From assembly GCA_016213895.1 (NCBI GenBank), contig JACQZJ010000076.1, positions 1,291-65,290 on the forward strand: a stretch of DNA of 64,000 nt. Reading direction: 5' to 3'. Positions 1,505 to 55,417 of the stretch are shown here, piece after piece; the first letter of the stretch is position 1, and each line of letters opens with the position of its first letter. Position numbers and translations under genes: made by a program. The DNA is from Planctomycetota bacterium. GTDB lineage: Bacteria; Planctomycetota; B15-G4; JADJEK01. Below the pieces are notes generated by a model, which did not search any database, had not been told where the DNA came from, and saw nothing but the letters and a program-made list of their open reading frames with translations.

Positions 1505-2938
1505 TCAGGCGCCGCGCCCCGCCTCCAGCCGGATCAGGTCGATCGCCTCGTCCAGGCGGTCCTGGTGCGTGCGGAAGCTCAGGACGCAGATGCGCTGGGT
1601 GAAGCGGCCCTTGACCCAGGCGCCGCTCATCCACACGCGCTGGTGGGCGAGCACGCGCTCGAGGAGCGCGACGTTGGCGCGGTCCTCGTCCTCGCCCGGA
1701 CGGGCCTCGTAGCGGAAGGTCACGAGCGACAGGTCGGGCGGCGCGAGCACGCGGATGCGCGGGATCTCCGCGAGGCGCACGGCGGCGCGCTCGGCGAGGT
1801 CGAGCTTCTCGTCCAGGCAGGCGCGAAACGCCCGCGCGCCGAAGATCTTCAAGGGCAGCCAGACGCGCAGGCCGCGAAAGTCGCGCGACAGCTCCGGCGA
1901 GTACTCGCAGAAGTCCTGCGCGACCGCGTCGTCCTGCAGGGTCGGCAGATACCCGGTCTCGGCCTGGTGGGGGGCGCGGAGATCCGCGCCGTGCCGCACC
2001 AGCAGGCAGCCGGTGCCGTAGGGCAGGAACAGCCCCTTGTGCGGATCGACGGTGATCGAGTCGGCGCGCTCGATGCCGTCGAGGCGCTTCTTGCCGCGCT
2101 CGGTCAGGAGGAAGAAGCCGCCGTAGGCCGCGTCCACGTGCAGCCAGAGGTTCTCGTCGCGGCAGACCTCCGCGATTCCCGGGAGATCGTCCACCACGCC
2201 GGTGTTCGTGGTGCCCGCGCTCGCCACCGCGATGGCGGGCCGGAGCCCCGCGCGCCGGTCGCGGGTCACGGCGTCCCGGAGCGCCGCGGCGTGGAACCTG
2301 AGGTCCTCGCCGGTCTCGATCGTGCGCACGCAGTCGCGCGGGAAGCCGATGACGCGCGCCGCCTTCGCCACCGAGTGGTGCGCCTGATCCGAGACGTACA
2401 CCACGCCGTCCTGGAAGCGTTCGCCGAGCAGCTTGTGGCGCGCGCACACCAGGCCCACCAGGTTGGCGAGCGACCCGCCGCTCGTGAGGATGCCGCGCGC
2501 TTCCTCCCCGAAGCCGGCCATGTCCAGGAACCAGCGCAGCACGTTCATCTCGAGGCGCGCGAGGAGCGGCGCGGGCGCGAACATGCCGGTGTAGCGGTTG
2601 GTGATGTTGGCGATCAGGTCGGCGATGGCCGCGGGCACGATGCCGCCGCCGGGAATGTAGGCGAGGTAGCCGGGCCCGGCCGTGTTGAACGAGCGCGGCG
2701 CGTACTCCCGCACCACCTTGCGCATAAGCTCGCCCGCGTCCGCGCCGTCTTCCGGCAGGGGCTCGATCAGCGCGCGCGCCTCGTCCAGGGCGTTCGCCGC
2801 GTTCGCCGCCGGCTGCTCGGGAAGGGCCCGCAGGTGCTCGAGGACGAGGCTGGCCGCCTGGTCGAGCCAGGCGCGCACCGTGACTTCGTCAGGCTCGAGC
2901 GGATGGCGCGCGCGGGCCGTGCTGGAGTTCTCGCTCAT
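1505..2938 (-). CDS. Pyridoxal-phosphate-dependent decarboxylase, group II (aromatic-L-amino-acid/glutamate decarboxylase family)
   Basis: The ORF carries the DPHKGLFLPYGTGCLL motif (PLP-lysine in DPHK) and SGGSxAN. Length and layout fit the group II decarboxylase fold. The likely start is MSENSS (2938), with an alternative MTEG at 2974. Confidence 0.85.
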   Translation of the reverse strand: MSENSSTARARHPLEPDEVTVRAWLDQAASLVLEHLRALPEQPAANAANALDEARALIEPLPEDGADAGELMRKVVREYAPRSFNTAGPGYLAYIPGGGIVPAAIADLIANITNRYTGMFAPAPLLARLEMNVLRWFLDMAGFGEEARGILTSGGSLANLVGLVCARHKLLGERFQDGVVYVSDQAHHSVAKAARVIGFPRDCVRTIETGEDLRFHAAALRDAVTRDRRAGLRPAIAVASAGTTNTGVVDDLPGIAEVCRDENLWLHVDAAYGGFFLLTERGKKRLDGIERADSITVDPHKGLFLPYGTGCLLVRHGADLRAPHQAETGYLPTLQDDAVAQDFCEYSPELSRDFRGLRVWLPLKIFGARAFRACLDEKLDLAERAAVRLAEIPRIRVLAPPDLSLVTFRYEARPGEDEDRANVALLERVLAHQRVWMSGAWVKGRFTQRICVLSFRTHQDRLDEAIDLIRLEAGRGA

Positions 2939-2990: not shown

Positions 2991-3431
2991 TCAGCGCGCG
3001 GCCACGATGTGGTCGAAGCGCTGATAGGCCTCGAAGCACAGGGTCAGGAGCGCGGTCGCACCCACGCGTCCGAGCGGGTTGCCCTGCGGATCCCAGGATC
3101 CCTGCTTGCAGCCGTCCTGCCGCTGGCTCCTCACCACGGCCTCGAGCAGATGGCTCTGCCACGCGTCCCAGTCCGCGCCGCCCATCTGGAACATAGCGTA
3201 GGACCCGAAGAACCAGTAGGGGAACTCGGCGGCGCCGGCGGTGCCGTTCTTCTCCCACTCCGGAGGATGCGCTCGCAGGAGCGCGGCAGCCGCGCGCAGC
3301 TCGGCGCCTTCTGGATCCGCGCCGAGCAGGATGAGGCCGAGCAGCGCGGCGGCGGCGGGCCGCTCCGGATGAGCCTCGCTGCTCGCCGCGTCGAGCGCCA
3401 GGCGCAGCCGCTCCTCGAGGAACCTGCGCGC
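2991..3431 (-). pseudogene. In-frame continuation of the VIT-vWA gene downstream of TAG (3432-3434): 146 further codons of the same repeat domain (possible pseudogene, sequencing error or stop-codon readthrough)
   Basis: In the same frame (offset 441 nt, which is 147 codons) the sequence reads ARRFLEERLRL...WEKNGTAGAAEFPYWFFGSYAMFQMGGADWDAWQSHLLEAVVRSQRQDGCKQGSWDPQGNPLGRVGATALLTLCFEAY. There is no Met before MFQMGG, and the QW-like motif continues the upstream domain. Confidence 0.7.
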
Positions 3432-6092
3432 CTAGTCGAGCGCCGTTGGATCGACCGACAGCCCGAAGTCTCGAGCCGACTTCAGAGCCAGCACGACCCA
3501 GCTCGTGAGGACCACGTCCTCGACCCGGTCCGCGCCGTCTCCCATGCGCCAGGCCCCGTCCGGCACGCGCGCCGCGAGCAGGAAGTCGATCCCCTTCTGC
3601 GCGGGGTCCTTCAGGAGCGGCCACTTCGCCAGCCCGCAGCACTCGGTCACGGCCAGCGTGGCGATGGCGTGATCGAGCAGGAAGCCGTCCCGGGACTTGC
3701 CCTCGCCGAAGCCACCGTTCGCCTGGTCCTGCAGGGACAACAGGTGCCTCGCGGCCACTCGGACCCCGTCCCGGTAGGTGCCCTGCTTCGCCGTGTTTCC
3801 CGCTCCGAGGTGCGCGAGGAGGGCCAGTCCGTTCATGCCGGCGTCGCGGCCGACCTCCCCTTCCCCGCCGCATTGGCTCGTGAAGCAGCAGTTGCTGAAC
3901 CTGCTGCTGGACCAGAAGCCGCGCGGATCCTGATGCCTCCTCAGCCACTCCAGGCTTCGCTCCACGTGCTGCAAGACGCGCACTACCTTCTGGCTCGCCT
4001 TGCAGCCGCCCACGCCCAGGACATCGTATTCGCCCCCGTCCATCATTGGCGCGTCGCGGGCGAGCAACTCTCTCACCGTCTCGGGGAGGGCCTCGTCCTT
4101 CTCCGTGTCGTCCTCGGAGACGACCTGCTCGTCGAGCTGGACCGCCTGCTCCGCGATGGGGTCCATCCGGGAAACCGGAGATGCGTTGACTCCCACGTCG
4201 GCCGCCGCGGGGTCGAGCCCGGCCAGCTCCCGGCGCCGCGCGGTCACCCGTTCCAGCGCCGCGTCCAGAGCCGTGGCGTCGCCCGGCGCGAGGCGCGCCC
4301 GGTCCTCGGGCAGGCGCGCGAGAAACGACGTGTACGGGCAGTGCACGCCGGTTTCGAGGGACAGGTCGATCTCCGCCTGGACCAGCTCGTCCTCGGTCGA
4401 GTACCGGCCGCGCTCGAGGGCCGCGAAGTAGGCCTCGTCCGAGAGGCCGGCGCGCAGGCGCAAGGCCCTCTCCAGCCAGCCGAGCTTGGCGCGCGCATAG
4501 AGGTCGCGCGCGACCGGCTCGCCGCGCGCGGCCGGCGCCTCGGCCTGGCCGAAGTCGACGGATGCGCTGAGAGCGCGCTTCCTTCCGTCCAGGATTCCCT
4601 CGACGGTCACGCGCTGCTCGCCCGCGCCGCGCCAGCGGCCCGTGATCACCGCCTGCTCGCCGAGGTAGATGGTGGGAAGCGGCCGCGGCAGCAGGTCGTC
4701 CACCACGCGGCCGTCGATGGTGACGCGCAAGCCGGCGACGGCCGGCGAGGACGTGCGCGCCAGGAACGCGCAGAGGCGCGACTCGATCTCGCCCTCCGGC
4801 CGGAACACCTCCGCGCTGCCGCCTCCGGCCGCGGCGATGCCCTCGAGCAGGGCGGAGTCCACGTCCGCGCCCACGCCGAAGGCGAAGGCGTGCGGAGCGC
4901 CCTCGGCCTGCTGCCGGGCGCACTCGATGATGCGCTCGGGCTGCGTCTCTCCCGCCGTGGGCAGGCCGTCGGTCAAGAACACGGCGAGGCCCACGCGGCC
5001 GTCCTCCCGGCCGCCGGCCGAGCAGGCCGCCTGCACCGCGTCGCCGAGAGCGGTGCCGCCGCCGGCCTCGGCGGTCTCGACGAAGCGCCGGAGCGCCGCG
5101 AGGTTCTCGCCGGTCGCCGGGACCGGCGCGTCCGCGAAGCGGCTCACCACGTCGCTGAAGAGCAGCACGTTCACGCGGTCCCTCTCCCGCAGGTGCTCGA
5201 GCAGCCAGAGCGCGGCGCGCTTCGCCTGCGCGATCTTGGCGCCCTCCATGCTGCCGGACACGTCGAGAGCGAGCGTCACGTCGCGCGGCAGCACCTGGCT
5301 CTCGGCGAGCGCGGGCGGCGTGACCAGGGCGGCGAAGAACGCATCCCCGCACGCGGGCCGGAAGACATGCACCGCGAGCGACGGCTCGGGCGTGGCGACC
5401 CTGGCGGTCACGACCACGTCCTCGCCGAGGAGCGCGCGCGACTTCTCGAGCGAGGCGTGCGCCTCGTGCTCGGAGACGAGGTGTGTTGCCATGCCCTCGG
5501 TGGGGGAGGAGACGTTCTTGATCGGGACCGACGAGCGCACGGCTACGGACACGGTGAGGTCCTGCTCGGTCGAGGCAGCGCCCGCGGCGAGCGCCAGCGG
5601 ATAGACGTAGCGATACTCGTCGTTCAGGAGCGGCAGGGCCTCGATCCAGGTCAGCTCCACCACGGTCGGCTGGTCCGGCAGCACCGGGAAGACCGAGAGG
5701 CGGAAGGCCGAGCGGCCGATCTGCTCCACGAGCGCCGGGTCGCGCTTCTGGCGCACGATGGCGTCGTAGGCGCGACGCGCAATCATGCGCTCGGCGAGGA
5801 ACCCCTCGAGCCGCTGATCGCCCAGCTCGAGCGCCAGGCCGGTCAAGGCCGCGCCTTCTGGCAGCGGGAAGACGTAGAGCGCCTCGAGCGCCCGGCCGTG
5901 GGGGTTCACGAACGTCTGGCGGAGCGTGGTGCGCGCCAGGCCGTCGTGAACCTCGGCCGTGACGCGGTGCGAGCGCACCTGGATGGGAGGGCTGCCGTCC
6001 CGCGGAACCAGGAGCCCGGCGCCGAAGGCGCGCTCACAGGCGAGCGCGGTAAGCACGAGACAGACGGAGAGCGGGAACCGCGACCAGGACAT
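3432..6092 (-). CDS. Secreted VIT (vault/inter-alpha-trypsin) + von Willebrand A domain protein with C-terminal prenyltransferase/terpene-cyclase-like (QW-type) repeats; ORF terminated by in-frame TAG
   Basis: There is an N-terminal signal peptide (MSWSRFPLSVCLVLTALA). A VIT-like N-terminal region is followed by a vWA MIDAS motif (LALDVSGSMEG...TALGDA). The C-terminus carries QDPRGFWSSS, QANGGFGEG and PDGAWRMGDG repeats typical of alpha/alpha-toroid prenyltransferase/SHC-like repeats. Confidence 0.85.
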   Translation of the reverse strand: MSWSRFPLSVCLVLTALACERAFGAGLLVPRDGSPPIQVRSHRVTAEVHDGLARTTLRQTFVNPHGRALEALYVFPLPEGAALTGLALELGDQRLEGFLAERMIARRAYDAIVRQKRDPALVEQIGRSAFRLSVFPVLPDQPTVVELTWIEALPLLNDEYRYVYPLALAAGAASTEQDLTVSVAVRSSVPIKNVSSPTEGMATHLVSEHEAHASLEKSRALLGEDVVVTARVATPEPSLAVHVFRPACGDAFFAALVTPPALAESQVLPRDVTLALDVSGSMEGAKIAQAKRAALWLLEHLRERDRVNVLLFSDVVSRFADAPVPATGENLAALRRFVETAEAGGGTALGDAVQAACSAGGREDGRVGLAVFLTDGLPTAGETQPERIIECARQQAEGAPHAFAFGVGADVDSALLEGIAAAGGGSAEVFRPEGEIESRLCAFLARTSSPAVAGLRVTIDGRVVDDLLPRPLPTIYLGEQAVITGRWRGAGEQRVTVEGILDGRKRALSASVDFGQAEAPAARGEPVARDLYARAKLGWLERALRLRAGLSDEAYFAALERGRYSTEDELVQAEIDLSLETGVHCPYTSFLARLPEDRARLAPGDATALDAALERVTARRRELAGLDPAAADVGVNASPVSRMDPIAEQAVQLDEQVVSEDDTEKDEALPETVRELLARDAPMMDGGEYDVLGVGGCKASQKVVRVLQHVERSLEWLRRHQDPRGFWSSSRFSNCCFTSQCGGEGEVGRDAGMNGLALLAHLGAGNTAKQGTYRDGVRVAARHLLSLQDQANGGFGEGKSRDGFLLDHAIATLAVTECCGLAKWPLLKDPAQKGIDFLLAARVPDGAWRMGDGADRVEDVVLTSWVVLALKSARDFGLSVDPTALD

Positions 6093-19978: not shown

Positions 19979-20476
19979 TCAGGTCTCGCCCACCTCCCTG
20001 CACGCGAAGTCGATGAGCCAGTCGGCGATGTAGTAGCCGCTTTCTCGGATGGCCCGGAGCAGGGGCCCGACTGCTGACACGAGCTCGTGCCTGCGGGCTG
20101 AGACCACCGTACCGACCACGCCCCGGACGCGCAGACCATACGCGAGGACCGCCACCCGTCGCGCCCTCAGGTCGTCGATCAGGAGCAGGCTGGCGCCCCG
20201 CCGGGAGGCGAGGGTGATGGCTTCGGCCTCTCCAGCACCGAAATCCTCGGAGAGGAGCGAATCCGGGGGCCGTTCCAGCTGAACGCGCTCGACCCAGTCC
20301 GCGGCCCTCAGCTCCCTCGATCCCGGGAGGCTCTCACCCTGGATGACGGTTTCGCGCCAGACGGCATCGGGAACCAGGAGTCTGCCGTACAACTTCGCAA
20401 GGAGATCCAGTCGCCCAACAACCGCGAGAGCGATGATGGGCCCGGTGTTGGACACGACGGGCCCGCGCTCAGTCAT
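19979..20476 (-). CDS. DUF3368/COG2405-type PIN-like nucleic-acid-binding protein (putative toxin)
   Basis: The sequence MTERGPVVSNTGPIIALAVVGRLDLLAKLYGRLLVPDAVWRE matches the characteristic N-terminus of the DUF3368 family (PIN-like). At 165 aa it is paired with the upstream UPF0175 gene. Confidence 0.65.
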   Translation of the reverse strand: MTERGPVVSNTGPIIALAVVGRLDLLAKLYGRLLVPDAVWRETVIQGESLPGSRELRAADWVERVQLERPPDSLLSEDFGAGEAEAITLASRRGASLLLIDDLRARRVAVLAYGLRVRGVVGTVVSARRHELVSAVGPLLRAIRESGYYIADWLIDFACREVGET

Positions 20477-20720
20477 CAGCGCACTCCCGCGCGGCCTCGT
20501 CGCGGTCGATGTTGACCACGGAAACGCCCATCCGGCTCGCTCGTCCCAGGAAGTCGACCCGGCTGATCCCGCAGAGCACGGCGGCCTTTCCCGACGAGAC
20601 CCTGCCCAGTTCGAAGAGTTTCAGAGCGAGCAGGAACTTCGCCTCCCGCACGAACTCGTCCCGGGAAAGTCCGGTGGAGAGCAGCACGCTCTCCGGCAAC
20701 TCGATCGTGAGCGGCGGCAT
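20469..20720 (-). CDS. UPF0175-family small protein (putative antitoxin partner of DUF3368)
   Basis: The 83-aa sequence MPPLTIELPESVLLSTGLSRDEFVREAKFLLALKLFELGRVSSGKAAVLCGISRVDFL matches the UPF0175 signature. It overlaps the downstream gene by 8 nt. Confidence 0.65.
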   Translation of the reverse strand: MPPLTIELPESVLLSTGLSRDEFVREAKFLLALKLFELGRVSSGKAAVLCGISRVDFLGRASRMGVSVVNIDRDEAARECADD

Positions 20721-20835
20721 GACCTGATCACCTCTCGCGCAGGGAACTCGACAGAAGCGGACTTCATGTTACACGAGGCTGCGGCAACCGAACACCCATC
20801 GTCCCGGCCTGGGGCGCGGCCGGCTCCCCTCCCCC

Positions 20836-21294
20836 TCAGTCCGCGGACGACGTGTGGTCAAGCACGATCCGCCACTCGTCGCCGATCCGACGGAAGAGCA
20901 GCGTGAACCTGCCCTTGGGCTGATCTTCCGGCCGTTCCAGGAGCCATGCGCCCGTGACCACGGCCGCGTCCTCGGCCAGCACGCGCACCTCGAGGTCGGA
21001 GAACGAGAGCTTGCCCATGCGGCCGGGCTCGCCGTAGGCCGCGTGGTAGCCGTCCCGGGTCTCCTGCCAGCCCCGGCGCACCTTGTCCCCGGACACGAAC
21101 ACCAGCTCGGGCGAACGCAGGTAGCCCTTCATGTACTCGTCGATGAGCCCGGCGTTCCAGGCGCGCTCCTGCTCGGCGAGCACGCCGCGCACCGCCTCCT
21201 CGGCCCGTGTGAACTCGGCCACGGTGAGCCCGGACGGTCCCTGCGTGCAGGCGAGGAACGGCAGAACGAAAAGGCAGCGGAGGGGCGCTATCAT
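20836..21294 (-). CDS. NTF2-like/SnoaL-like (DUF4440-type) lipoprotein
   Basis: The start MIAPLRCLFVLPFLACTQG has a lipobox-like LAC. The mature protein is about 130 aa with W/Y-containing NTF2-like fold segments (RAEEAVRGVLAEQERAWNAG...GAWLLERPEDQPKGRFTLLFRRIGDEWRIVLDH). Confidence 0.55.
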   Translation of the reverse strand: MIAPLRCLFVLPFLACTQGPSGLTVAEFTRAEEAVRGVLAEQERAWNAGLIDEYMKGYLRSPELVFVSGDKVRRGWQETRDGYHAAYGEPGRMGKLSFSDLEVRVLAEDAAVVTGAWLLERPEDQPKGRFTLLFRRIGDEWRIVLDHTSSAD

Positions 21295-21377
21295 GGCGGG
21301 GACGACTCCTGTAGCGGTCGCCGTGGCCGGCTGGCAGTGCGCCATATTATGACTCCGCGGGAGAGGATGCCCGCCGC

Positions 21378-22115
21378 ATGCGGAAGGAGAGCGACGTGAT
21401 GCGACCGGCCATCGCCCTGGACATCGAGACCGTCGGAGTCGGCTGGGACGAGCTGGACGAGCCGACGCGGACCTACCTGGTCACGCGCGCCGCGCGCAAG
21501 ATGGGGCGCGAGGGCATCACCGACGGCAGCGCCGAGGCCCTGGCGCGCGAGGCCCTGGGGCTCTCGCCCGGCACGGGCAGGGTCGTCGCCATCGGCCTGG
21601 TGAACCTGGAATCGGAGCAGGGCGCGCTGCTCTACGAGGGCACGGAAGGGTGGCTCGCGACCGAGCCCAACGCCACGCGCCTCTTCCGCGGCCCGGAAGC
21701 GGCCATCCTGCGCGAGTTCTGGCAGCTGCTCGAGCGCTACGGCCGGATCGTGACCTACAACGGCCGCGGCTTCGACCTGCCCTACGTGTACCTCCGCTCC
21801 GCCCTGCACGGCATCCGCCCGAGCCGCCAGGTGCTCGGCAACCGCTACTCCATCGCCGAGCACTGCGACCTGGCCGAGGTGCTGACCTTCTTCGGCGCCG
21901 CGCAGGAGCGCTTCTCGCTCGACTACTGGTGCCGCCGCTTCGGGATCACGTCGCCCAAGGCCGAGGGCCTGGACGGGTCCCAGGTGAACGCCTTCTACCG
22001 GGACGGCAGGATCGAGGAGATCGCCGAGTACTGCCTGCGGGACGCGGCCGCGACCGCCAAGCTCTACCGCGCCCTGGAAGGCACGCTCATCGACCTGCAG
22101 GGCAAGCGCGCCTGA
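21378..22115 (+). CDS. RNase H-like 3'-5' exonuclease (PolB-exonuclease-related, COG3298-like)
   Basis: AIALDIETVG is the Exo I acidic motif. YNGRGFDLPY, HCDLAEV and YCLRDAAAT are further Exo motifs. Confidence 0.7.
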   Translation: MRKESDVMRPAIALDIETVGVGWDELDEPTRTYLVTRAARKMGREGITDGSAEALAREALGLSPGTGRVVAIGLVNLESEQGALLYEGTEGWLATEPNATRLFRGPEAAILREFWQLLERYGRIVTYNGRGFDLPYVYLRSALHGIRPSRQVLGNRYSIAEHCDLAEVLTFFGAAQERFSLDYWCRRFGITSPKAEGLDGSQVNAFYRDGRIEEIAEYCLRDAAATAKLYRALEGTLIDLQGKRA

Positions 22116-22620: not shown

Positions 22621-25600
22621 CTAGCGCGCGACCGGCTCCTTGTACTCGGGGCGCGGCCGCGGCGGGTCGCGCTCGAGCGCGGCCAGAGCCAGCTCCACCG
22701 CCTTCTCGAGCTGCGGATCGCGGCCGGCGATGACCTCCTTCGGCCACTCGATGACCTCGTAGTCCGGGGCCACGCCGATGTTCTCGACCGCCCACTCGCC
22801 GTTCTCGTCCATCACGCCGAAGTTCGCCGCGGTGACGAACCCGCCGTCCATGAGCGCGGGGTAGCCGGAGATGCCGACCAGGCCGCCCCAGGTGCGCGTG
22901 CCCACGAGCGGTCCGACGCCCTCCTTCTGGAAGGCCCACGGCATCCAGTCGCCGCCCGAGCCCGCCGACTCGTTGATGATCATGACCTTCGGCCCTTCGA
23001 TCGTGCCGAAGGGGGTCTGGCCGACCCACCTCTCGCGGTTCATCCAGTAGGAGATCACGTTGCGCGAGAGGATGTCGATCACGTAGTCCGCGGCCTGGCC
23101 GCCGCCGTTGTAGCGCTCGTCCAGGATCACGCCCTGCTTGCCGAGCTGGCTGAAGAAGTCGCGGTCGAAGGCGGCCATGCCGCCGCCCGCCGTATCCGGC
23201 ATGTAGATGTAGGCCAGCCGTCCGCCGGACAGCTCGCTCACGCGCTGGCGGTTCGACTCGATCCAGGAAAGGTGGCGCAGGCCGAACTCGTCCCCGATCG
23301 GCACCACCGTCATGGTGCGCGCGTCGTTGCCGTCGGGCTTCGAGGCGAGCGTGATTTCCACCTGCCGGCCCGCGGTGTTCTCGAAGGCGCGGAAGATGTT
23401 CTCGTCCGCCATGACCGGCCGGCCGTTCACGGTGATCAAGTAGTCGCCGGCGCGTGCGTCCACGCCCGGGCCGGTCAAGGGCGCGCGCAGCCCGGGGTTC
23501 CAGTTCTGCCCGCGGTAGATCCGGGTGATGCGGTAGCGCTGCCGGTCGACCTCGTAGTCGCAGCCGAGCAGGCCGACGGAGACGCCGCCCGGCGGGCCCG
23601 GCATCTCGCCGCCGCCGCAGTACTCGTGGCCGCAGCACAGCTCGCCGATCATCTCGGAGACGAGCACGTTCAGGTCGGCGCGGTGCTTGACGTGCGGTAG
23701 GAAGGCGGACCAGCGCCGCCATATCGCCGGCCAGTCGACGTGGTGCATGTTCGGGTCGTAGAAGTAGTCGCGCTCGATGCGCCACGCCTCGCGCAGGATC
23801 TGCGGCCACTCCTCGGCCGGCTCGACGCGCACCGTCACCCCGCCGATGTTCAGGCCCTTGGCGTCCTGGCCCGAGGCGTTTCGGATCGACCAGCCGCCCC
23901 CCTCGCTGGTGAGCAGCCACTGGCCGTCCCCGGACACGCGGAAGCCGTTGATCCCGCCAGCCAGCGTGTTGCTCTTGCGCGAGTCGAAGTCGAAGCTCTT
24001 GAGTTCGGGCCCGCCCCCGCGCGGCGCCTGGATGAAGAGCAGCTTGTCCTTGCTGCAGGCCAGGTTGTAGTAGATGCCGGAACCGAGCGGCAGGGCCAGG
24101 ATCCGCTGGTCGAGGCCCTCGAGGTCGATGGAGGGCTTCTCCTCCTTCTTCTCTTCCTCTTTCTTCTCCTCGGGCTTGGGCGCCTCCTCTTTCTTCTCCG
24201 CGGCCGGAGCCTCTCCCTCGGCCTTCTTCTCGCCCTCCTGGGGCGCTTTCTCCTCTGCCGCGGCCGCGCCTTCCCCGCCGTCTTCCTTCTTCTCGTCCTT
24301 CTTGTCCTCCTCCTTCTTGTCCTTGTCGGGCTTGTCCTTCTCGTCCTTCTTCTTCGTTGGCCGCGCCGAAGTCGTCCGTGAGCGAGGTGGTGGTGCGGGT
24401 CGCCAGCTCGTAGAGGGAGATGTGGTCGTAGAGAGTGCGCAGGTTGCGGTTCTCGTAGGCGATCCACTTGGAATCGGGCGACCACACGGCCGTGGGCCGC
24501 ACCACGCCGAGGGAGCCCTGCACGCTGCCGAATTCGGTCAGCACGCCGCTCTCGAGCGTGACTAGGCCCAAGCGGTTCCCCTTGTCCGTGAACAGGATGT
24601 GCTTGCCGTCCGGGCTCCAGACCGGGTCGTAGAAGAAGCCGCCGTCGCCGAGGTCGTAGCTGCGGGCGGGCTTTCGGCCGCGCGCGTCTCCCACCATGAG
24701 CTGGTACTCGCCGCTCGCGTCCGAGAGCCATGCGACCTGCTCGCCGTCCGGCGACCAGACCGGGCTGCGCTCGTGCACCCCGGGCGAGTTGGTGAGGTTG
24801 CGCGGGTCGCCGTGCTCGCGCGGCACGGTGATGATCTCGCCGCGCGCCTCGAAGACCGCGCGCTTGCCGTTCGGCGCCACGTCCGCCGCGCGCACCGCGC
24901 CGCCCACCGCCTGCCAGCGCGGCAGGGCGGCCAGGTCGTCGGCGCGGATCCGGATGGCGAGGCGCTCCGAGGTGCGTCGTTCCGGGTCGTAGAGGTGCAG
25001 CGACCCGGCCTGCTCGAAGACGATCACGCCTCCGCCGGCGCTCATGGAGCGGATGTCGAAATCGGTGAAGTAGGTGAGCTGCTCGGCCTTGCCCGAGCCG
25101 GGCGCGTAGCGCCACAAGTTCATGTGGTCGTCGCGGTCCGAGGCGAAGTAGACCTGGCCGTCGAGCCAGCAGGGGAAGGTGTCGGTAGCGTGCGCGTGGG
25201 GGATCTCCTCGACCTCGTGCGTCGCGGGGTCGTAGATCCAGACGGGCGGGACCGTGCCGCCGCGATGCCGCTTCCAGGTGCGGAAGGCGTCGCGGATGGG
25301 GGTGTAGGCGATGCGCGAGGCGTCCGCGTTGTAGGCCGCGTGGTTGGCCTTGGGGATCTCGAGCATGGCGGGCGTGGAGCCGCCGTCGGTTTCTGCCAGG
25401 AAGAGGCGCGGTGCCGGCGCGCCCGAGGCGCGCATGCTGCGGAACAGCACGCGCTTGCCGTCCGGATGCCAGCCGAGCACGCGGTCCTCCCCAGGGTGCC
25501 AGGTCAGGCGGCGCGGCGCCCCGCCCTCGACCGGCACGACGTAGACGTCGGTGTTGCCTTCGTACTGGCCGGAGAAGGCGATGTGGAGTCCGTCGGGGCT

Positions 25601-25840
25601 GAAGCGCGGCGCGACCTCGGCGCCGGAGCTGCTCGTGAGCCGGCGCGCTTCGCCTCCCCTGCGCGGGGCGACCCAGATGTCCGCGGCGTAGACGAAGGCC
25701 ACATGCTCGCGCGAGACCGAGGGGTCCTGGAGCAAGAGGGTCTCCTCGTCGGGCCGCGCGCGCGCGGTTTGCAGGGCGAGGCACAGGAGGAAGGCAACGG
25801 CGCAGGCGGCGCGCCACGGGGACGGGCGGGCTGCGGTCAT
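22621..25840 (-). CDS. Tricorn-protease-like S41 peptidase with N-terminal PD40/TolB-like beta-propellers and a K/E-rich linker; reading frame shifted near 24345-24365
   Basis: The N-terminal frame (25840 to about 24360) has a signal peptide and WD-like PD40 repeats (SPDG...). The C-terminal frame, open upstream of the 438-aa ORF to about 24355, gives KKDEKDKPDKDKKEEDKKDEKKEDGGEGAAAAEEKAPQEGEKK...KPSIDLEGLDQRILALPLGSGIYYNLACSKDKLLFIQAPRGGGPELKSFDFDSRKSNTLAGGINGFRVSGDGQWLLTSEGGGW followed by the S41 peptidase domain. The two parts join only via a 1-nt frame change in gccaacgaagaagaagg. Confidence 0.8.
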
Positions 25841-27429: not shown

Positions 27430-27460
27430 ACGAACGGCGCCTGGCCCCCTTCGCCGCGGG

Positions 27461-29004
27461 TCAGTTCCCGCCGCTGCCCAGCTCCGCGAGCACCTCGCTG
27501 TCGAGGCCCCAGGTCAGTGTGCTGTCGTACGGGTCCATGTCGATGGCCAGGAGCTGGTACTTCTTGCCCGTGTCCTTGGAGTCGCCGTCCGCGAGCTTGC
27601 GGTAGGCCTCGCCCAGATGGCGGTACATGTGCGGGTTCATGGGATCGAGCTGGATCCCCTTCTGCAGGACCTCGATCGCCTCCTTGGCCTTGTCGTCCTC
27701 GATGAGCAGCTCGCCATAGCCCAGGTAGGTGCTCGGGTTGGTGGTGTACCCCTCGATCGCCTTCTTGAAGAACACGCCCGCGCGGACGTTGCGGTCCCAG
27801 CGCTTGCAGAACATGGCGGCCGCGTGGTAGCCGCGCGCCGACTCCACCTTCATCGAACGGATGTAGTCGTACCACTCCTTCTCGTAGGCATCGAGGTCCT
27901 GGACGCCGAGCGTCTTCTTGAACTGATCGATGGCGAAGTCGCGCTTCACCCACATGAAGTTCGGGTTGCGCGGGTTGGCCTCGCGTTCGGCCGTGCCCCG
28001 CGCCAGCTTGTCGACGTAGGCCTTGAACTTCGGCCGGGTCTTGGCGTTCTCCATGAGCTTGTGGCAGAGCGACCAGGCCCAGGCGTACTTGATGCCGTCC
28101 TGGAACACGCTGTCGCGCAGCAGCCCTTCCAGGTCCTGGTTCTCGCCGCCGTCCATCTCGTCCATGAGTATGACCAGGCGCCCTTCCTGCTGGTGTCCGA
28201 GCGACATCTGCTTGGTGGTCGGATCCCACTGGCTGGCGCCGTAGTACTCGGCCATGCCCTCCTCGATCCAGGGCTCGAGCTGCCAGTTGTCCTTCGTGTG
28301 CAGGAAGAAGAGGTAGTGGTTCAGCTCGTGGAAGAGCACGTCGAGGGTGAGGCGCTCGTCCTGGCGCTCGTAGAAGAAGTTCAGCTCGATTGGGTCGACG
28401 AAGCGGAAGTAGCCCAGGACGTTCTCGCTCACGTTGCCGATCCGCGTGAAGTCCTCGCGCTTGTTGTAGAAGCAGACCTTGAGCTTCTTGCCCTTGGGCT
28501 GCTGCACCTTCCACTCCTTGGCGAAGGTGTCGTAGTAGACCTCGAACATGTCCATGTACTGGCGGCCGACGTCCAGCGGCACGGTGAACTCGAAGGAGAA
28601 GTGCTTGGTGTCCTGCTGGTAGCGGTCGCGCCACTCCTGGTGCTTCCTGTACTCGTCGAGCTGCGCGCGCCGCTCCTGCTGCTGCTTCTCGACGAGCTGG
28701 TCGCGCCGCGCCTTGGGGATCCACTTGCCCTCGAACGGCACCAGGCCCAGGGCGAGCTTCTCGGCCTCCTCGGGGGTCCGCGCCTCGACGCTGCCTCCTC
28801 CCTCGGCGCAGAAGAAGTCCTGCACCAGCTCCTTCGCGACGATGACCGAACCGTGCGGATAGACCACCTCGAAGTCCTTCTCGCGCTCGATGAGCTTGGG
28901 GACCTCGTAGTAGCGCCCGTCCTTGAAGAAGAGCGAGTCGCCCGCCGCGCTGGCCGCGGCGGCGCACACAAGAAACAGCGTGCTCAGGGTCGTTCGCGCG
29001 CGCA
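27461..29004 (-). CDS. Secreted HExxH-motif putative metallopeptidase (DUF1570-like) with C-terminal TPR-like region
   Basis: The real start MRARTTLSTLFLVCAAAASAAG is a signal peptide, with GGAGGGA upstream. The HExxH motif sits in VLFHELNHYLFF. The C-terminal ...YLGYGELLIEDDKAKEAIEVLQKGIQLDPMNPHMYRHLGEAYRKL is TPR-like. The upstream 360 aa of the 911-aa track ORF are artefact. Confidence 0.65.
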
Positions 29005-29019
29005 TGACTCGTCCCTCCG

Positions 29020-30759
29020 TCACTTCGTGCGGCCTTCGGCGTACTTGCCCCACGAGCTGTCCAGGCTGTTCCAGTCCCCGTCGTCCCAGTCCTTGAAGGT
29101 GAGCTGGAAGGCGTCCTCGAGCAGGCGCTCGGCGACCTTCTCGTAGGCCTGGTCGCGTCGCTTGCGGTACTCCTCGTCCTCGGCCTTGAGCCGCTCCTCG
29201 TCGGACATGCCGGCGCCGCTCTTGGCCCCCGACTCCTTCCTGTCCTTCTCCAGGTCGGCCTCGACCTTCTGCACCAGGTCGTAGAGGTTGCCGATGTAGT
29301 GGGTCACGAGGGACGCGGTCTTCTTGTTCTTGCTGCCTGGACCCTCGATGAGGTAGCGCACCACCGAGGCGCACTGCGCCTGGGTGAAGCGCCCGAGCTG
29401 GCCCTGCCACAGCTCGTCTGGCGTGGTCGTGATCAGGGTCTTGACGGGCTTGATCGGCGCCAGCGCCGGGTTCGATCCCTCGAACTTCCGCTGCTCGAGC
29501 ATGGCATCGTTCAGCGCGTCCTCTTCCCACTGCTCGGGATTGAAGACGAGCTTGGAGCCTTTCAGCACCCCGTTGTTCACGTACTCCTGCAGGCCCCACG
29601 AGAGCCAGCGCGGCATCCTGTCCCAGAGCTGGTCGTTCTTGCCCTCCAAGAAGTTGCAGGTGATGTCCGTTGACAGGCCGCGGAACTCGGAAATCCAGCC
29701 GACGCTCTCGGGCTTGGCGAACTCGATCTCGCGCACCGTGCCCGGGACCAAGAGGATCAGGCGCGCACCCGTGGGGATGTCCGCCTCCTTCTCGTACACG
29801 CGGATGATCATGGATTGGACCTGCCCCGAGCCGACCGTGCCGAAGTGCGCCTCCATCCAGTCGCAGACCGCCTCGGCGTGCTGGCCCACTTCCTTGGCGT
29901 ACTTCGGCGGGCAGGCGTGGGCGATGAGGAAGTGCTCGGTCTCGAAGCTGCGCCAGCCCGCGGGCAGGGCGTCGATGCACTTCTTGAAAGCGTCTTCCTT
30001 CTGCTTCTTGCGCCGGGCGAGCAGCTCCTCGGCCGAGAGCTTGTCCTCGTCGACGTCGTCGCCGAGATCCAGGTCCACGGAGGCGCTGTCCGTGTCCTTG
30101 AGCTTGAGGCCGGCCTTGTCGAGCAGCTTGAAGCTGTTGAAGGTCTTCTTGAACTCCGCCGTCAGCTCCTCGAAGTGCTGCTCGGTGCAGCTGCACACGA
30201 TGGCGAACTCGCCGTTCGGCACCTTGAAGGCGCAGGCCATCCAGCGCTGCGGGATGTTGGTGCCCTTCTCGAACTTCATTTCATAAATGGTGGCGTCGAA
30301 GCCCGCGATCTTGGCCGGCTTCTCGCCGTCGAAGAAGAAGCCGGTGATCTGGTCCGAGGCGTACTCCTTGAAGTTCCGGTACAGGCGGCCGTTGATGAGC
30401 CAGCTCACCCGCGTCTTGCCTTCCTCGTTCGCACCCTTCTGGCTCTCCTCCTGCGCCTTGGCCACGTCCGCGGCCGAGCGCTCGGGGAAGAAGTAGGTGG
30501 CCATGTGCCGGTGGAACGTCCAACCGATCTTGCTCGGCAGCGCCTTGGTGCACTTGAAGGTGTCGACCAAGTAGTAGTCGAGGATCAGCCCGGCGAGGTC
30601 GCCCGCGTCCGGCGTCACCTCGAAGTCATCCGGGAGCGAGATGCGGTAGCCGATCTTTTCGTTCACGTGGGCGCCGGCGGCCAGAGCCGGGGCGGCCAGG
30701 AACGCGCACAGCAGAGCCGCGCGCCCAGCCAGGCGGATGGTCTTGTTCATGCATGTCAT
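29020..30759 (-). CDS. Secreted hypothetical protein (K/E/F/W-rich), co-oriented 15 nt upstream of the HExxH protein
   Basis: The start is MTCMNKTIRLAGRAALLCAFLAAPALAAGAHV (signal peptide), with GGGAG upstream. The protein is about 580 aa, coherent and non-repetitive, and matches no family I recognise. Confidence 0.6.
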   Translation of the reverse strand: MTCMNKTIRLAGRAALLCAFLAAPALAAGAHVNEKIGYRISLPDDFEVTPDAGDLAGLILDYYLVDTFKCTKALPSKIGWTFHRHMATYFFPERSAADVAKAQEESQKGANEEGKTRVSWLINGRLYRNFKEYASDQITGFFFDGEKPAKIAGFDATIYEMKFEKGTNIPQRWMACAFKVPNGEFAIVCSCTEQHFEELTAEFKKTFNSFKLLDKAGLKLKDTDSASVDLDLGDDVDEDKLSAEELLARRKKQKEDAFKKCIDALPAGWRSFETEHFLIAHACPPKYAKEVGQHAEAVCDWMEAHFGTVGSGQVQSMIIRVYEKEADIPTGARLILLVPGTVREIEFAKPESVGWISEFRGLSTDITCNFLEGKNDQLWDRMPRWLSWGLQEYVNNGVLKGSKLVFNPEQWEEDALNDAMLEQRKFEGSNPALAPIKPVKTLITTTPDELWQGQLGRFTQAQCASVVRYLIEGPGSKNKKTASLVTHYIGNLYDLVQKVEADLEKDRKESGAKSGAGMSDEERLKAEDEEYRKRRDQAYEKVAERLLEDAFQLTFKDWDDGDWNSLDSSWGKYAEGRTK

Positions 30760-31403
30760 GGAGAACTCCCTCTTCCTTTCCAACCCTTTCACCAATGTTC
30801 CTTCCTCGTTCGGCGCGGCCGATCCCCGGCACGGCGCCAAGGGGGAGGACGCCTGCCGTTGAAGACCGGCCTTCCGCCGCCGGGTTCCGCGGACTACTGT
30901 AGCCGAAGCCGGGCGGGCCGCGATAGACCGGATTTTCGCCGCCGGCAGCGCCCGCCTGGTCCTTCGCGCCGGGCCCGGGGGACGCGTTCCCCCTTTGATG
31001 GCTCGGGTCGCGGGTCTTTGCGTTGATTTTCAAGAAAAAGCGAACGGCGGGGGGCGCGCGGCGGCGTCCGGGCCTGCTGCTGCTCGCGCACCGCGGCCGT
31101 GGCCGTGCCCGTGGCCGGCCTGGCGCTGGCCGGCGCGCTCTGGGAGAGCGGCCGGGTCACGCTGCCCCTGCCCCGCGCGCGGCCCGCGGCCCTGCCCGCG
31201 CCCGAGCAGGCGCGCCGCGCCGGCGACGACTACCTCGTGGTGACGCGGCGGAACGTCGCCAACCTGGAAGCCGCGCTGGCGCGAAACAACAAGTAGGGTC
31301 GAGGCGGCCGGGGCGCCGCTTTCCCGGACGGCCGCATCCTGGCGGCGCATATGATGTCCGTCCCGCCGGCGCGCGCCGGCTTGCACCACGGAGATCGACC
31401 CAG

Positions 31404-32288
31404 ATGCGTTGTCTGCCGCTTGCGTTCTGCTGCCTCGCCTTGGGCTGCGCCGCCTACTGTCCGCCGCGCGAGGTCGCCGCCACCCTGAACCAGGCGGTGC
31501 ACGCCGCGCAGATCCAGATCGAGCGCGAGAACCCCCTGGCGGCGGCGCAGCTCGTCGAGGCGGTGCTGCGCATCGACCCCGAACACGCGAGCGCCCGGCA
31601 GGTGAAGGAGTCGATCTCCTCGCCGCAGGTCGAGTTCCTGTTCGAGCAGAGCCCGATCGGCTCGAACCGCGCGCGCCGCGTGCCGATCGAGCGCTCGCTC
31701 GGCGCGCGCATCGGCCTCTACCTGCCGGACCGGCTGCTCGACCTGCTGGACGTGCTCTCCTTCGACGTGCACCTCGGCCTGGGCGTGCTGGTGAACGTGC
31801 ACGTCACGCGGGCGGTGCAGGTCGGCGCGGGCGGACGCGCCACCGGCGGCTTCGGCTGGCACGACCACCGCTCGCTCGGGGTGCTGGCCCAGACGGAGAG
31901 CGAGTTCGTCCTGCCCGGAGTGGGCGCCCAGGCCTACCTGGGGGCGCTCGCCGGCACCTCCGGCCTGCTGGCGACCGGCGACGCCCTGGCCGGCGTGCAT
32001 GCGCCTTCCGCGGAGCTGTACCAGGAATACCGCGACTACTGGGCGGTGGGCGTCTCGGTCACCGCGGTGGTGGTCGGGCTCGACCTCGACATCCACCCGC
32101 TGGAGATCGCCGACTTCGCGGCCGGCCTTTGCACCTTCGACTTCCTGTACGACGACCTCGCCGCGACCACGGGCCTGGGGCTTTCGCACACCGAGCGCGC
32201 GCTGCTTTGGCAGCTGTCCGACATCGGCCGCTCCCAGCGCACGATGGAGGCGTACCTCGCGACCGTGGAGGCGGAGCGCGGGAAGTAA
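31404..32288 (+). CDS. Hypothetical lipoprotein
   Basis: The start is MRCLPLAFCCLALGCAAYCP (lipobox LALGC). The 294 aa downstream look like a real protein. The upstream 380 bp of the 421-aa track ORF are Arg/Gly-rich artefact. Confidence 0.5.
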   Translation: MRCLPLAFCCLALGCAAYCPPREVAATLNQAVHAAQIQIERENPLAAAQLVEAVLRIDPEHASARQVKESISSPQVEFLFEQSPIGSNRARRVPIERSLGARIGLYLPDRLLDLLDVLSFDVHLGLGVLVNVHVTRAVQVGAGGRATGGFGWHDHRSLGVLAQTESEFVLPGVGAQAYLGALAGTSGLLATGDALAGVHAPSAELYQEYRDYWAVGVSVTAVVVGLDLDIHPLEIADFAAGLCTFDFLYDDLAATTGLGLSHTERALLWQLSDIGRSQRTMEAYLATVEAERGK

Positions 32289-32303
32289 CCCCTGGGGGCG
32301 AAC

Positions 32304-33023
32304 ATGGACTGGGCACTGGTGACCGGCGCGAGCCGGGGGATCGGGCGGGCGATCGCGCTGGCGCTGGCGCGCCTGCCGGCGCACGTGGTGGTCAACTACA
32401 AGTCGTCGCGCGAGCAGGCCGAGGGGGTCGCGGCCGAGATCGGCGCCGCGGGCGGATCGGCCGAGGCGTGCGGCTTCGACGTCGCGGACGCGGCCGCCGC
32501 CGAGCGCGAGGTGCGGCGCCTGATCGAGCGGCGCGGCGCGCCCTACGCCGTGGTCAACAACGCCGGCGTGGTGCGGGACGAGCTCATGGTCTGGCTGACG
32601 CCGGCGGAATGGGAGAGCGTCATCGCCACCAACCTGGGCGGCTTCTTCAACGTGACGCGCCTCTGCCTCAAGGACATGCTGGTGGCGCGGCGCGGCCGCA
32701 TCATCAACGTCAGCTCGGTCGCCGGGCAGCAAGGGAACGCGGGCCAGGTGAGCTACGCGGCTTCCAAGGCCGGTCTGAACGGCGCCACCATGGCCCTGGC
32801 GCGCGAGGTGGCGCGGCGCGGCATCACCGTGAACGCCGTCGCCCCGGGCTACGTCGAAACGGAGATGACTCGTTCTCTCGACGCGGCTACACTGCAGAAG
32901 GCGATCCCGATCGGCCGCTTCGGCCGGCCGGAGGAGGTCGCTTCCCTGGTCGCGTTCCTCTGTTCCGACGGCGCTGCCTACATCACCGGCCAGGTCATTG
33001 CGGTGAACGGAGGTCTGGTCTAG
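32304..33023 (+). CDS. fabG: 3-oxoacyl-ACP reductase (SDR family)
   Basis: TGASRGIGRAIA is the cofactor-binding motif. The NNAG, S...YAASKAG catalytic triad (YxxxK) and PGYVETEMT are also present, at 239 aa. Confidence 0.9.
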   Translation: MDWALVTGASRGIGRAIALALARLPAHVVVNYKSSREQAEGVAAEIGAAGGSAEACGFDVADAAAAEREVRRLIERRGAPYAVVNNAGVVRDELMVWLTPAEWESVIATNLGGFFNVTRLCLKDMLVARRGRIINVSSVAGQQGNAGQVSYAASKAGLNGATMALAREVARRGITVNAVAPGYVETEMTRSLDAATLQKAIPIGRFGRPEEVASLVAFLCSDGAAYITGQVIAVNGGLV

Positions 33024-51333: not shown

Positions 51334-51458
51334 TCGTGTGGCTTTTCGAGGCGGAGGCGATGCTGGCGATCCAGAGTCGTGAAGGTGCGCCGGGTGCAGT
51401 GTGTTCGGCGCGCGCTCCGTGGGCTTGCAGTGCGCGGCCGGCTAGGAGACAATCCAAG

Positions 51459-51545
51459 GAATGGCGGCGAGGAGACTCGCCACCAGTCCGATCGAGACCA
51501 GGTTCCGCCACTTCAGGGCGGCTGGCGCTGACGCGGAGGGCCCGA
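51459..51545. repeat. Degenerate direct duplicate (~85% identity) of the 5' coding end of the MFP gene (51095-51190) located in the intergenic region
   Basis: Compare gcggcgaggaacatcgccgccagtccgatcgagaccaagatccgccacctcagggcggctggcgc with gcggcgaggagactcgccaccagtccgatcgagaccaggttccgccacttcagggcggctggcgc. The start codon is lost in the copy. Confidence 0.8.
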
Positions 51546-51595
51546 CCGTGCCGCGGCGCGCGCCGGCCCGCGAGAGTGCGAAGGCCCAGCGCACC

Positions 51596-52258
51596 ATGGC
51601 GCAGGACGACAGGCAGCTCGGACCGCCGTCGAGCAGGATCCTCCTGACTCGCGTTCGCGCCGGGGACGACGACGCGTATCGCGAGATGTTCGCGCGGTAC
51701 ACCGAGCGCCTGGAGAAGAGGATGGTCTCGGCGCTCGGGCCCAAGCTGCGCCGCCGCCTGGGGGTCGACGACCTCCTCCAGGACGTGTGGACGCAGTTCA
51801 GCCGGAATGCCGGCCGCCTGGAGTACCGCGGCGGCGGGTCGCTCTACCGCTGGCTGTGCCGCGTGGCGGACAACGTGGTGCGCATGGCCCAGCGCGCGCA
51901 CGTGGTGTCGGATTGCCGCGCCGTGGCGCGCGAGGACACGTTCCAGCCGGCGCCCGGCTCCAGCGGGTTCGAGGCGCGCCTGCCGGCGTCCATCGACCCG
52001 TCGCCGTCGGCCGCGGCCTCGAACACGGAGCGCCTCGAGGCCCTCTCGCGCCTGCTCGGGCGGCTCTCGGACGACCACCGCGGGGTGATCCGGCTGGTCT
52101 ACGTGGAGCGGCGCTCGGTGGCGGATGCTGCCCAGGTCCTGGAACGATCGCCGAACGCCGTCAAGAAGCTGCTCGGCCGCGCCATGGCGCGCTGCGCCGA
52201 GCTCGCGGCCAGCGATTCCTTCGCGGCGTACCGCTCGGATGTCGAGCTGCGCGGGTAG
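51596..52258 (+). CDS. ECF (group IV) sigma-70 factor
   Basis: Starting from MAQDDRQLGPPSSRILLTRVRAGDDDAYREMFARYTERL there is a region 2 block (DLLQDVWTQF), and a region 4 block LSDDHRGVIRLVYVERRSVADAAQVLERSPNAVKKLLGRAMARC. Confidence 0.8.
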   Translation: MAQDDRQLGPPSSRILLTRVRAGDDDAYREMFARYTERLEKRMVSALGPKLRRRLGVDDLLQDVWTQFSRNAGRLEYRGGGSLYRWLCRVADNVVRMAQRAHVVSDCRAVAREDTFQPAPGSSGFEARLPASIDPSPSAAASNTERLEALSRLLGRLSDDHRGVIRLVYVERRSVADAAQVLERSPNAVKKLLGRAMARCAELAASDSFAAYRSDVELRG

Positions 52259-52276
52259 CGCGGGCAGCGCGCGAGC

Positions 52277-55417
<3,141 letters not shown>

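Follow-up and report, generated by a model that had tools for sequence, protein, structure and literature searches.

The 64-kb window considered here, i.e. the whole stretch of DNA analysed, belongs to a contig of a Planctomycetota metagenome-assembled genome (MAG) with about 72% G+C and carries, on its minus strand, a gene for a protein with VIT and vWA domains that is interrupted by a single in-frame TAG. An open reading frame (ORF) of 886 codons starts at an ATG and ends at this TAG, after which the same frame stays open over 146 codons with a G+C content at third codon positions (GC3) of 0.89, down to a TGA at positions 2991-2993, for a whole reading of 1,033 codons across the stop. Coordinates and sequence are as given in the initial annotation of this stretch. 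As developed below, the premature stop has the look of a recent nonsense mutation of the ordinary kind, or of an error in the consensus, and not that of a programmed readthrough or recoding signal.

The NCBI entry MBI4879907.1 ('MAG: VWA domain-containing protein [Planctomycetes bacterium]') is 100% identical to the 886-aa product, from which it follows that the public annotation corresponds to the shortened ORF; the extension is left untranslated if the TAG acts as a stop. Downstream, a gene for a pyridoxal phosphate (PLP)-dependent decarboxylase, also on the minus strand, begins some 50 nt past the TGA, which is a normal spacing for the long gene; the short gene would imply a coding-like 'spacer' of about 490 nt. 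Past the TAG, the first start codon (ATG, GTG or TTG) is met only some 80 codons on, this being the ATG with which the listed ORF 2991..3194 begins. At such a distance a separately initiated second polypeptide is unlikely, and re-initiation giving a split gene with two polypeptides was rejected on this ground.

Homology across the stop codon

Since a G+C content of about 72% makes long open frames common, the openness of the frame is not evidence on its own. The chance of 146 codons staying open at the local base composition is about 0.087, and two non-coding frames across the gene show 0 and 1 stops in some 1,033 codons. The initial annotation had argued that chance would not keep 440 nt open, which is invalid at this G+C content; the case for a split gene is carried by homology and not by the open frame.

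Regarding this homology, the C-terminal 354 residues of the reading, with X at the stop, match Planctomycetota proteins of about 510 aa with 45-49% identity and 92-100% query coverage, and the full 1,033-residue reading matches dozens of proteins of 1,000-1,050 aa with a coverage of 97-100%. Both the shorter paralogues and the long orthologues align unbroken through the site, which bears out the earlier reading that the same domain continues past the stop and that the two parts, about 1,030 codons in all, are one gene interrupted by a single TAG. The top non-self match (P0045) is encoded by a single uninterrupted ORF at a locus designated L001 (DYIW01000303.1, from a MAG labelled Phycisphaera mikurensis) and shares 73% identity over residues 1-1033. 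When the 146-aa tail was compared by BLASTP with the retrieved family, 97 matches were obtained, with E-values from 5e-57 for the best to 1e-30, and for 86 of them the alignment extends to both C-termini, which designates the TGA as the ancestral terminator. A Pfam search of the extension alone gave no match, its homology being visible only in the family-level comparison.

At the site itself, an alignment of 27 sequences shows a sense codon in all 26 full-length orthologues. The window reads GAC TAG GCG where L001 reads GCC GGA ACG, i.e. a Gly codon stands at the stop position in the closest orthologue, and the column is variable, with G, D, A, R, E, V, T, L and Q encountered among the 26. The gene thus has the attributes of a nonsense-disrupted gene: what precedes and what follows the stop match a single continuous protein of relatives, and the orthologues have a coding triplet in place of the TAG and terminate where the TGA stands. 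A naturally short gene, for which the orthologues would end at the TAG and the tail would be unconserved, is contradicted by orthologues ending at the position of the TGA and by the 74.7% amino-acid identity of the tail to that of L001. One further candidate for a shortened orthologue, P0068, was rejected as it is a partial entry in which the homology continues.

Predicted architecture and related proteins

Going from the N-terminus, a hydrophobic segment that AlphaFold models as a low-confidence helix is read, from sequence, as a putative signal peptide (Table 1). It precedes a VIT domain and then a vWA domain in which the residues of the metal ion-dependent adhesion site (MIDAS), i.e. D277-x-S279-x-S281, T347 and D375, are intact and invariant across the 27 aligned family sequences. 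This succession of VIT and vWA with the full MIDAS pattern DxSxS...T...D is the one that defines VIT-vWA proteins of the inter-alpha-inhibitor heavy-chain-like type, and in a Foldseek search the N-terminal ~600 aa match inter-alpha-inhibitor heavy chain 1 (6fpy) with E = 8e-31 and a target-normalised TM-score of 0.73. The AlphaFold model, for which 27 family sequences served as input and whose mean per-residue confidence (pLDDT) is 83, shows a β-rich VIT domain and the vWA domain at the N-terminal side, an acidic disordered linker, which is also the most divergent stretch relative to the L001 orthologue, and then a toroid of 12 helices. In this model, helices 1 to 6 span residues 701-719, 750-763, 774-787, 804-822, 825-840 and 856-875, and helices 7 to 12 span residues 889-900, 910-922, 930-941, 956-970, 972-987 and 1008-1024. 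Codon 887 falls in the loop joining helices 6 and 7, such that the product recorded as MBI4879907.1 would lack half of the barrel.

Table 1. Features of the interrupted gene and of other loci in the 64-kb window
Feature	Position	Strand	Description
ATG-started ORF, 886 codons	6092..3435	-	N-terminal 86% of the ancestral gene
Putative signal peptide, residues ~1-24	6021..6092	-	Hydrophobic N-terminal segment MSWSRFPLSVCLVLTALACERAFGAG
VIT domain, residues 40-148	5649..5975	-	Pfam PF08487, E = 6.9e-25
vWA domain, residues 271-428	4809..5282	-	Pfam PF00092, E = 1.2e-13
Acidic disordered linker, residues ~630-700	3993..4205	-	pLDDT <50 over 630-701
Predicted (α/α)6 toroid, residues 701-1024	3021..3992	-	12 long helices in the AlphaFold model
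In-frame TAG, codon 887	3434..3432	-	Context ctc gac TAG gcg cgc
Downstream extension, 146 codons + TGA (2993..2991)	2991..3431	-	Predicted toroid helices 7-12, ancestral C-terminus
PLP-dependent decarboxylase	1505..2938	-	Neighbouring gene
Three small ORFs in three frames	19979-21480	-	Weak PIN-like, UPF0175 antitoxin-like and DUF4440/SnoaL-like
Tricorn-like protease gene	22621..25840	-	Frame switch at ~24340-24373
Region of ~1.6 kb	27430-29020		No frame with the neighbours' strong GC3 signal
Stop-to-stop frame, 1,608 codons	46686-51512	-	AcrB/RND transporter domain at codons 560-1580

The C-terminal domain had initially been labelled as a repeat of the QW type found in terpene cyclases. What stands of this label is a weak similarity: the Pfam SQHop_cyclase_C match remains below cut-off in the window protein, and the profile of the toroid family finds squalene-hopene cyclase with E = 3e-10 and insect thioester-containing protein 1 with E = 7e-4. 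The motifs DxDD, DDxxD and CGEQ are absent from the toroid of the window protein; of seven orthologues checked, six lack them as well and P0054 has one DSDD at residue 800. In other words, the (α/α)6 toroid fold of class II terpene cyclases and mutases is predicted here and the catalytic DxDD, or DDxxD for class I, is missing. The protein is not classed as a terpene cyclase, and its toroid is probably a non-catalytic binding module rather than an enzyme.

Besides the long orthologues, toroids also occur as standalone paralogues of about 510 aa (P0001-P0031; loci L004-L009), which are common in Planctomycetota MAGs, combine a hydrophobic helix at the N-terminus with an acidic linker and a segment rich in Gly, and are described as membrane-anchored; at least two of them are found in the MAG of L001. 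The C-termini that follow VIT-vWA are interchangeable in Planctomycetota, with one toroid (~1,030 aa), two toroids in tandem (P0050, 1,423 aa), HEAT repeats (~1,250 aa) or none (~700-800 aa), as seen from proteins that include P0050, P0062, P0064 and P0091.

A distant and independent orthologue with 41% identity, L013 (3001-5682 of ENA ERZ26222911 ctg990696; P0109), shows homology that ends some 10-20 residues past the position equivalent to the TAG. Its end is rich in Arg, Pro and Ser and looks out of frame, and the C-terminal half-toroid was not found downstream of it in any frame. As L013 has lost the same C-terminal half, such shortened forms do occur in assembled genomes, and this loss, together with the interchangeable C-termini, designates the C-terminal module as evolutionarily labile. 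Given this lability, a tolerated truncation in the window is plausible, though not proven.

Origin of the stop codon

Whether translation ends at codon 887 depends on how TAG is read in this organism. Among the stop-to-stop frames of the window with a coding-type GC3, 32 in all, 22 end at TGA, 8 at TAG (25%, the studied frame included) and 2 at TAA. The other seven TAG stops sit at normal protein ends, such as those of a FabG-like reductase ending in ...NGGLV and of an extracytoplasmic function (ECF) sigma factor, six codons after which a separate Ser/Thr kinase gene opens with its own ATG. The context TAG-G, as at codon 887, is also that of two genuine terminators, at 22621 and 35715. This indirect evidence from the sequence suggests that TAG is read as a stop in the organism, and an ordinary terminator at this place implies that translation would stop at codon 887. 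Two other pairs of ORFs in the same frame, each with one stop between its members (30999-33023 and 51446-55417), were considered as signs of a genome-wide recoding of TAG; this was rejected as they consist of neighbouring genes with their own ATG.

With moderate confidence, the TAG is attributed to a real nonsense allele, made by a single substitution in the sequenced population. According to this explanation, one codon of a variable loop would have turned into TAG, probably from GAG (Glu), CAG (Gln) or TTG (Leu), since these three residues occur in the orthologue column and have codons one step away from TAG. Apart from this codon, the gene would be undamaged and belong to a conserved family of Planctomycetota, whose secreted proteins have a VIT-vWA-(α/α)6 toroid organization. 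Translation would terminate at codon 887 to give a product retaining the signal peptide, the VIT domain, a MIDAS-competent vWA domain, the linker and helices 1-6 of the 12 helices of the toroid. Judging from the model, this half-toroid is very probably unfolded or lost, and the N-terminal module may still be working. The 441 nt downstream would then be a young gene remnant that has not yet decayed.

The age of the lesion was approached through the divergence from L001, with the ratio of nonsynonymous to synonymous rates (ω) estimated by the Nei-Gojobori method and, for ω and the conserved sites, with the toroid half upstream of the TAG as reference. Amino-acid identity to L001 amounts to 75.4% upstream and 74.7% downstream of the TAG, and neither a frameshift nor a second stop was found in the 146 codons of the tail. 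The relative-rate asymmetry against L001, 5:1 downstream and 20:18 upstream, is not significant (Fisher P = 0.21-0.24). In the last helix, V1022A, Y1024Q, Y1026F and R1028H form a cluster of four replacements specific to the window. Relaxed selection on the tail was considered and rejected, as this asymmetry is not significant, the downstream rate is not higher and ω does not differ. With a constraint no weaker than upstream, the tail has not spent any measurable time under neutral evolution, which leaves a TAG that arose very recently or one that is not real.

This last option, according to which the real gene is intact, codes for a 1,033-aa protein and shows a TAG only through a consensus, base-call or strain-mixing error, is a serious possibility, albeit held to be less probable than a real allele. 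The initial annotation had named recent nonsense mutation and base-call error among its options, and these two are the ones favoured by the evidence. Speaking for an error, the source is a MAG contig of 91,735 bp, and the conservation of the tail matches that of the remainder of the gene. Several observations weigh against a real allele in this respect. The ω of the tail, 0.57 (95% confidence interval 0.32-1.02), is not significantly raised over the 0.44 (0.30-0.63) of the upstream toroid half (bootstrap P = 0.22), and window-specific changes at conserved sites number 5 of 62 downstream vs. 10 of 89 upstream; this lack of relaxation is predicted equally by an error and by a very recent mutation. 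Besides, the species-representative genomes and the JGI metagenome contigs, the latter searched with a 201-aa C-terminal query, yielded no relative above 73% identity. The Tricorn-like protease gene of the same window moreover contains a second lesion, a frameshift next to a low-complexity stretch rich in purines, of the sort where assemblies typically go wrong, and the MAG consensus could accordingly be imperfect. Set against this, substitution errors are rare in short-read consensus sequences, and most of the window is taken up by long ORFs without interruption, the largest of about 1,000-1,100 codons, which argues that the assembly is not generally error-ridden. TAG and the GGA of L001 differ at three of three bases and both flanking codons differ too, which portrays the site as a fast-evolving loop and not as a conserved codon with one odd base. 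Bacteria, for their part, commonly contain real pseudogenes with a single lesion (Feng et al., 2022; PMC9122581). On balance, a real base is somewhat more likely than an erroneous one.

Leaky or programmed amber readthrough, by which a minor full-length isoform, possibly functional, would accompany a major 886-aa isoform, had also been put forward in the initial annotation and appears unlikely. In disrupted genes of Salmonella, low-level readthrough affects UAG more often than the other stops, and the commonest base 3' of the stop is C (PMC9122581). With an intact tail and no nearby restart codon, readthrough would indeed be the only route to a full-length protein, and trace amounts could arise here too by unprogrammed leakiness of UAG. 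Such leakiness would be a background property of any UAG and not a designed element. The extension is conserved, as expected for a programmed element, but the stop is not, sense codons being present in 26 of 26 orthologues. The 3' context, which the initial annotation had suggested comparing with readthrough-promoting ones, is TAG-G as at ordinary terminators of the window, and differs from the one favoured in Salmonella. The 126 nt around and after the TAG do not fold better than shuffled sequences (z = -1.24, with 20 of 200 shuffles folding as well), and Rfam gave no match after the stop even at E ≤ 1 and no family anywhere in the window. From the model, a short isoform ending in a half-toroid would make no obvious structural sense. 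The more elaborate scenario of a real UAG that an unlinked suppressor or a near-cognate tRNA decodes some of the time, with a major form made of VIT-vWA and a disordered tail, a minor toroid-bearing form and hence a regulated two-isoform secreted adhesin, is very unlikely.

That the truncation was selected, the loss of the half-toroid being advantageous or neutral and the 886-aa protein functional in the lineage, is more doubtful still. The modular C-termini of the family, which carry HEAT repeats, two toroids or nothing after VIT-vWA, and the distant orthologue L013 devoid of the same toroid half speak for it, but an old loss should have left a decayed tail where an undecayed one is found, and a closed 12-helix barrel cut after helix 6 is, according to the model, unlikely to stay folded.

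Recoding of the TAG as pyrrolysine or another amino acid has the least to commend it and is scarcely credible: TAG is the codon of pyrrolysine and the frame runs on, but within the window TAG is no rare stop, ending as it does 8 of 32 coding-like frames, no tRNA gene and hence no tRNA(CUA) was found there, none of the ~35 ORFs scanned shows a PylS-, PylB-, PylC- or PylD-like domain, leaving no trace of the pylTSBCD set, the TAG is not conserved in orthologues, and a literature search pairing pyrrolysine with Planctomycetes returned no title or abstract naming either term.

Other loci of the window and comparison with known systems

Some other loci of the window deserve a mention in their own right (Table 1). 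In the Tricorn-like protease gene, the frame switch separates a half with a PD40 β-propeller from a half with C1, PDZ and S41 domains; the switch in GC3 adjoins AACGAAGAAGAAGG, where a Lys/Glu-rich low-complexity linker begins, and the gene is either a pseudogene or an assembly error. In the 1,608-codon stop-to-stop frame, the 561 codons upstream of the AcrB/RND transporter domain, in the same frame, gave no Pfam match, and may be a fused adaptor, a different gene or simply GC-rich sequence that happens to be open. Among the three small ORFs at 19979-21480, the PIN-like and UPF0175-like ones look like a small pair of the toxin-antitoxin type. In the region of about 1.6 kb at 27430-29020, long ORFs are open on both strands.

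The main value of the present analysis lies in annotation, with a corrected gene model as its useful outcome, as MBI4879907.1 is a shortened call of a 1,033-codon gene and should be flagged as disrupted or compared with the reads. It also bears a lesson for genomes with 72% G+C, where an open frame past a stop means little and homology identifies the split. The family, which associates inter-alpha-inhibitor-like VIT-vWA with a toroid devoid of catalytic motifs, is widespread in Planctomycetota and uncharacterised, and is of modest interest independently of the stop.

In sum, a conserved gene is interrupted here by a premature stop of the ordinary sort, unless the TAG stems from a consensus error. 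This feature resembles the bacterial single-lesion pseudogenes and 'pseudo-pseudogenes' (Feng et al., 2022; PMC9122581) in having one premature UAG in an otherwise intact conserved gene, a downstream part that is still coding-like and intact orthologues; unlike them, the stop is followed by G where C is the commonest base, and the lesion is a putative one, in a MAG-derived sequence. With pyrrolysine-encoding UAG codons, as in methylamine methyltransferase genes, it shares an in-frame UAG within a conserved ORF, but this UAG is unconserved, TAG is a frequent stop and neither pyl genes nor tRNA(CUA) occur in the window. Regarding the protein, the N-terminal ~600 residues resemble inter-alpha-trypsin inhibitor heavy chains (6fpy), in that a VIT domain precedes a vWA domain whose MIDAS is complete; from these chains the window protein differs by an identity of 19% and by being bacterial, predicted to be secreted and endowed with a C-terminal (α/α)6 toroid. 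This toroid, for its part, resembles those of squalene-hopene cyclases, prenyltransferases and thioester-domain proteins (PF13243; 2sqc, 2pn5) by its 12 predicted helices and by profile matches, and departs from them by the lack of DxDD, DDxxD and CGEQ and by Pfam scores below cut-off.

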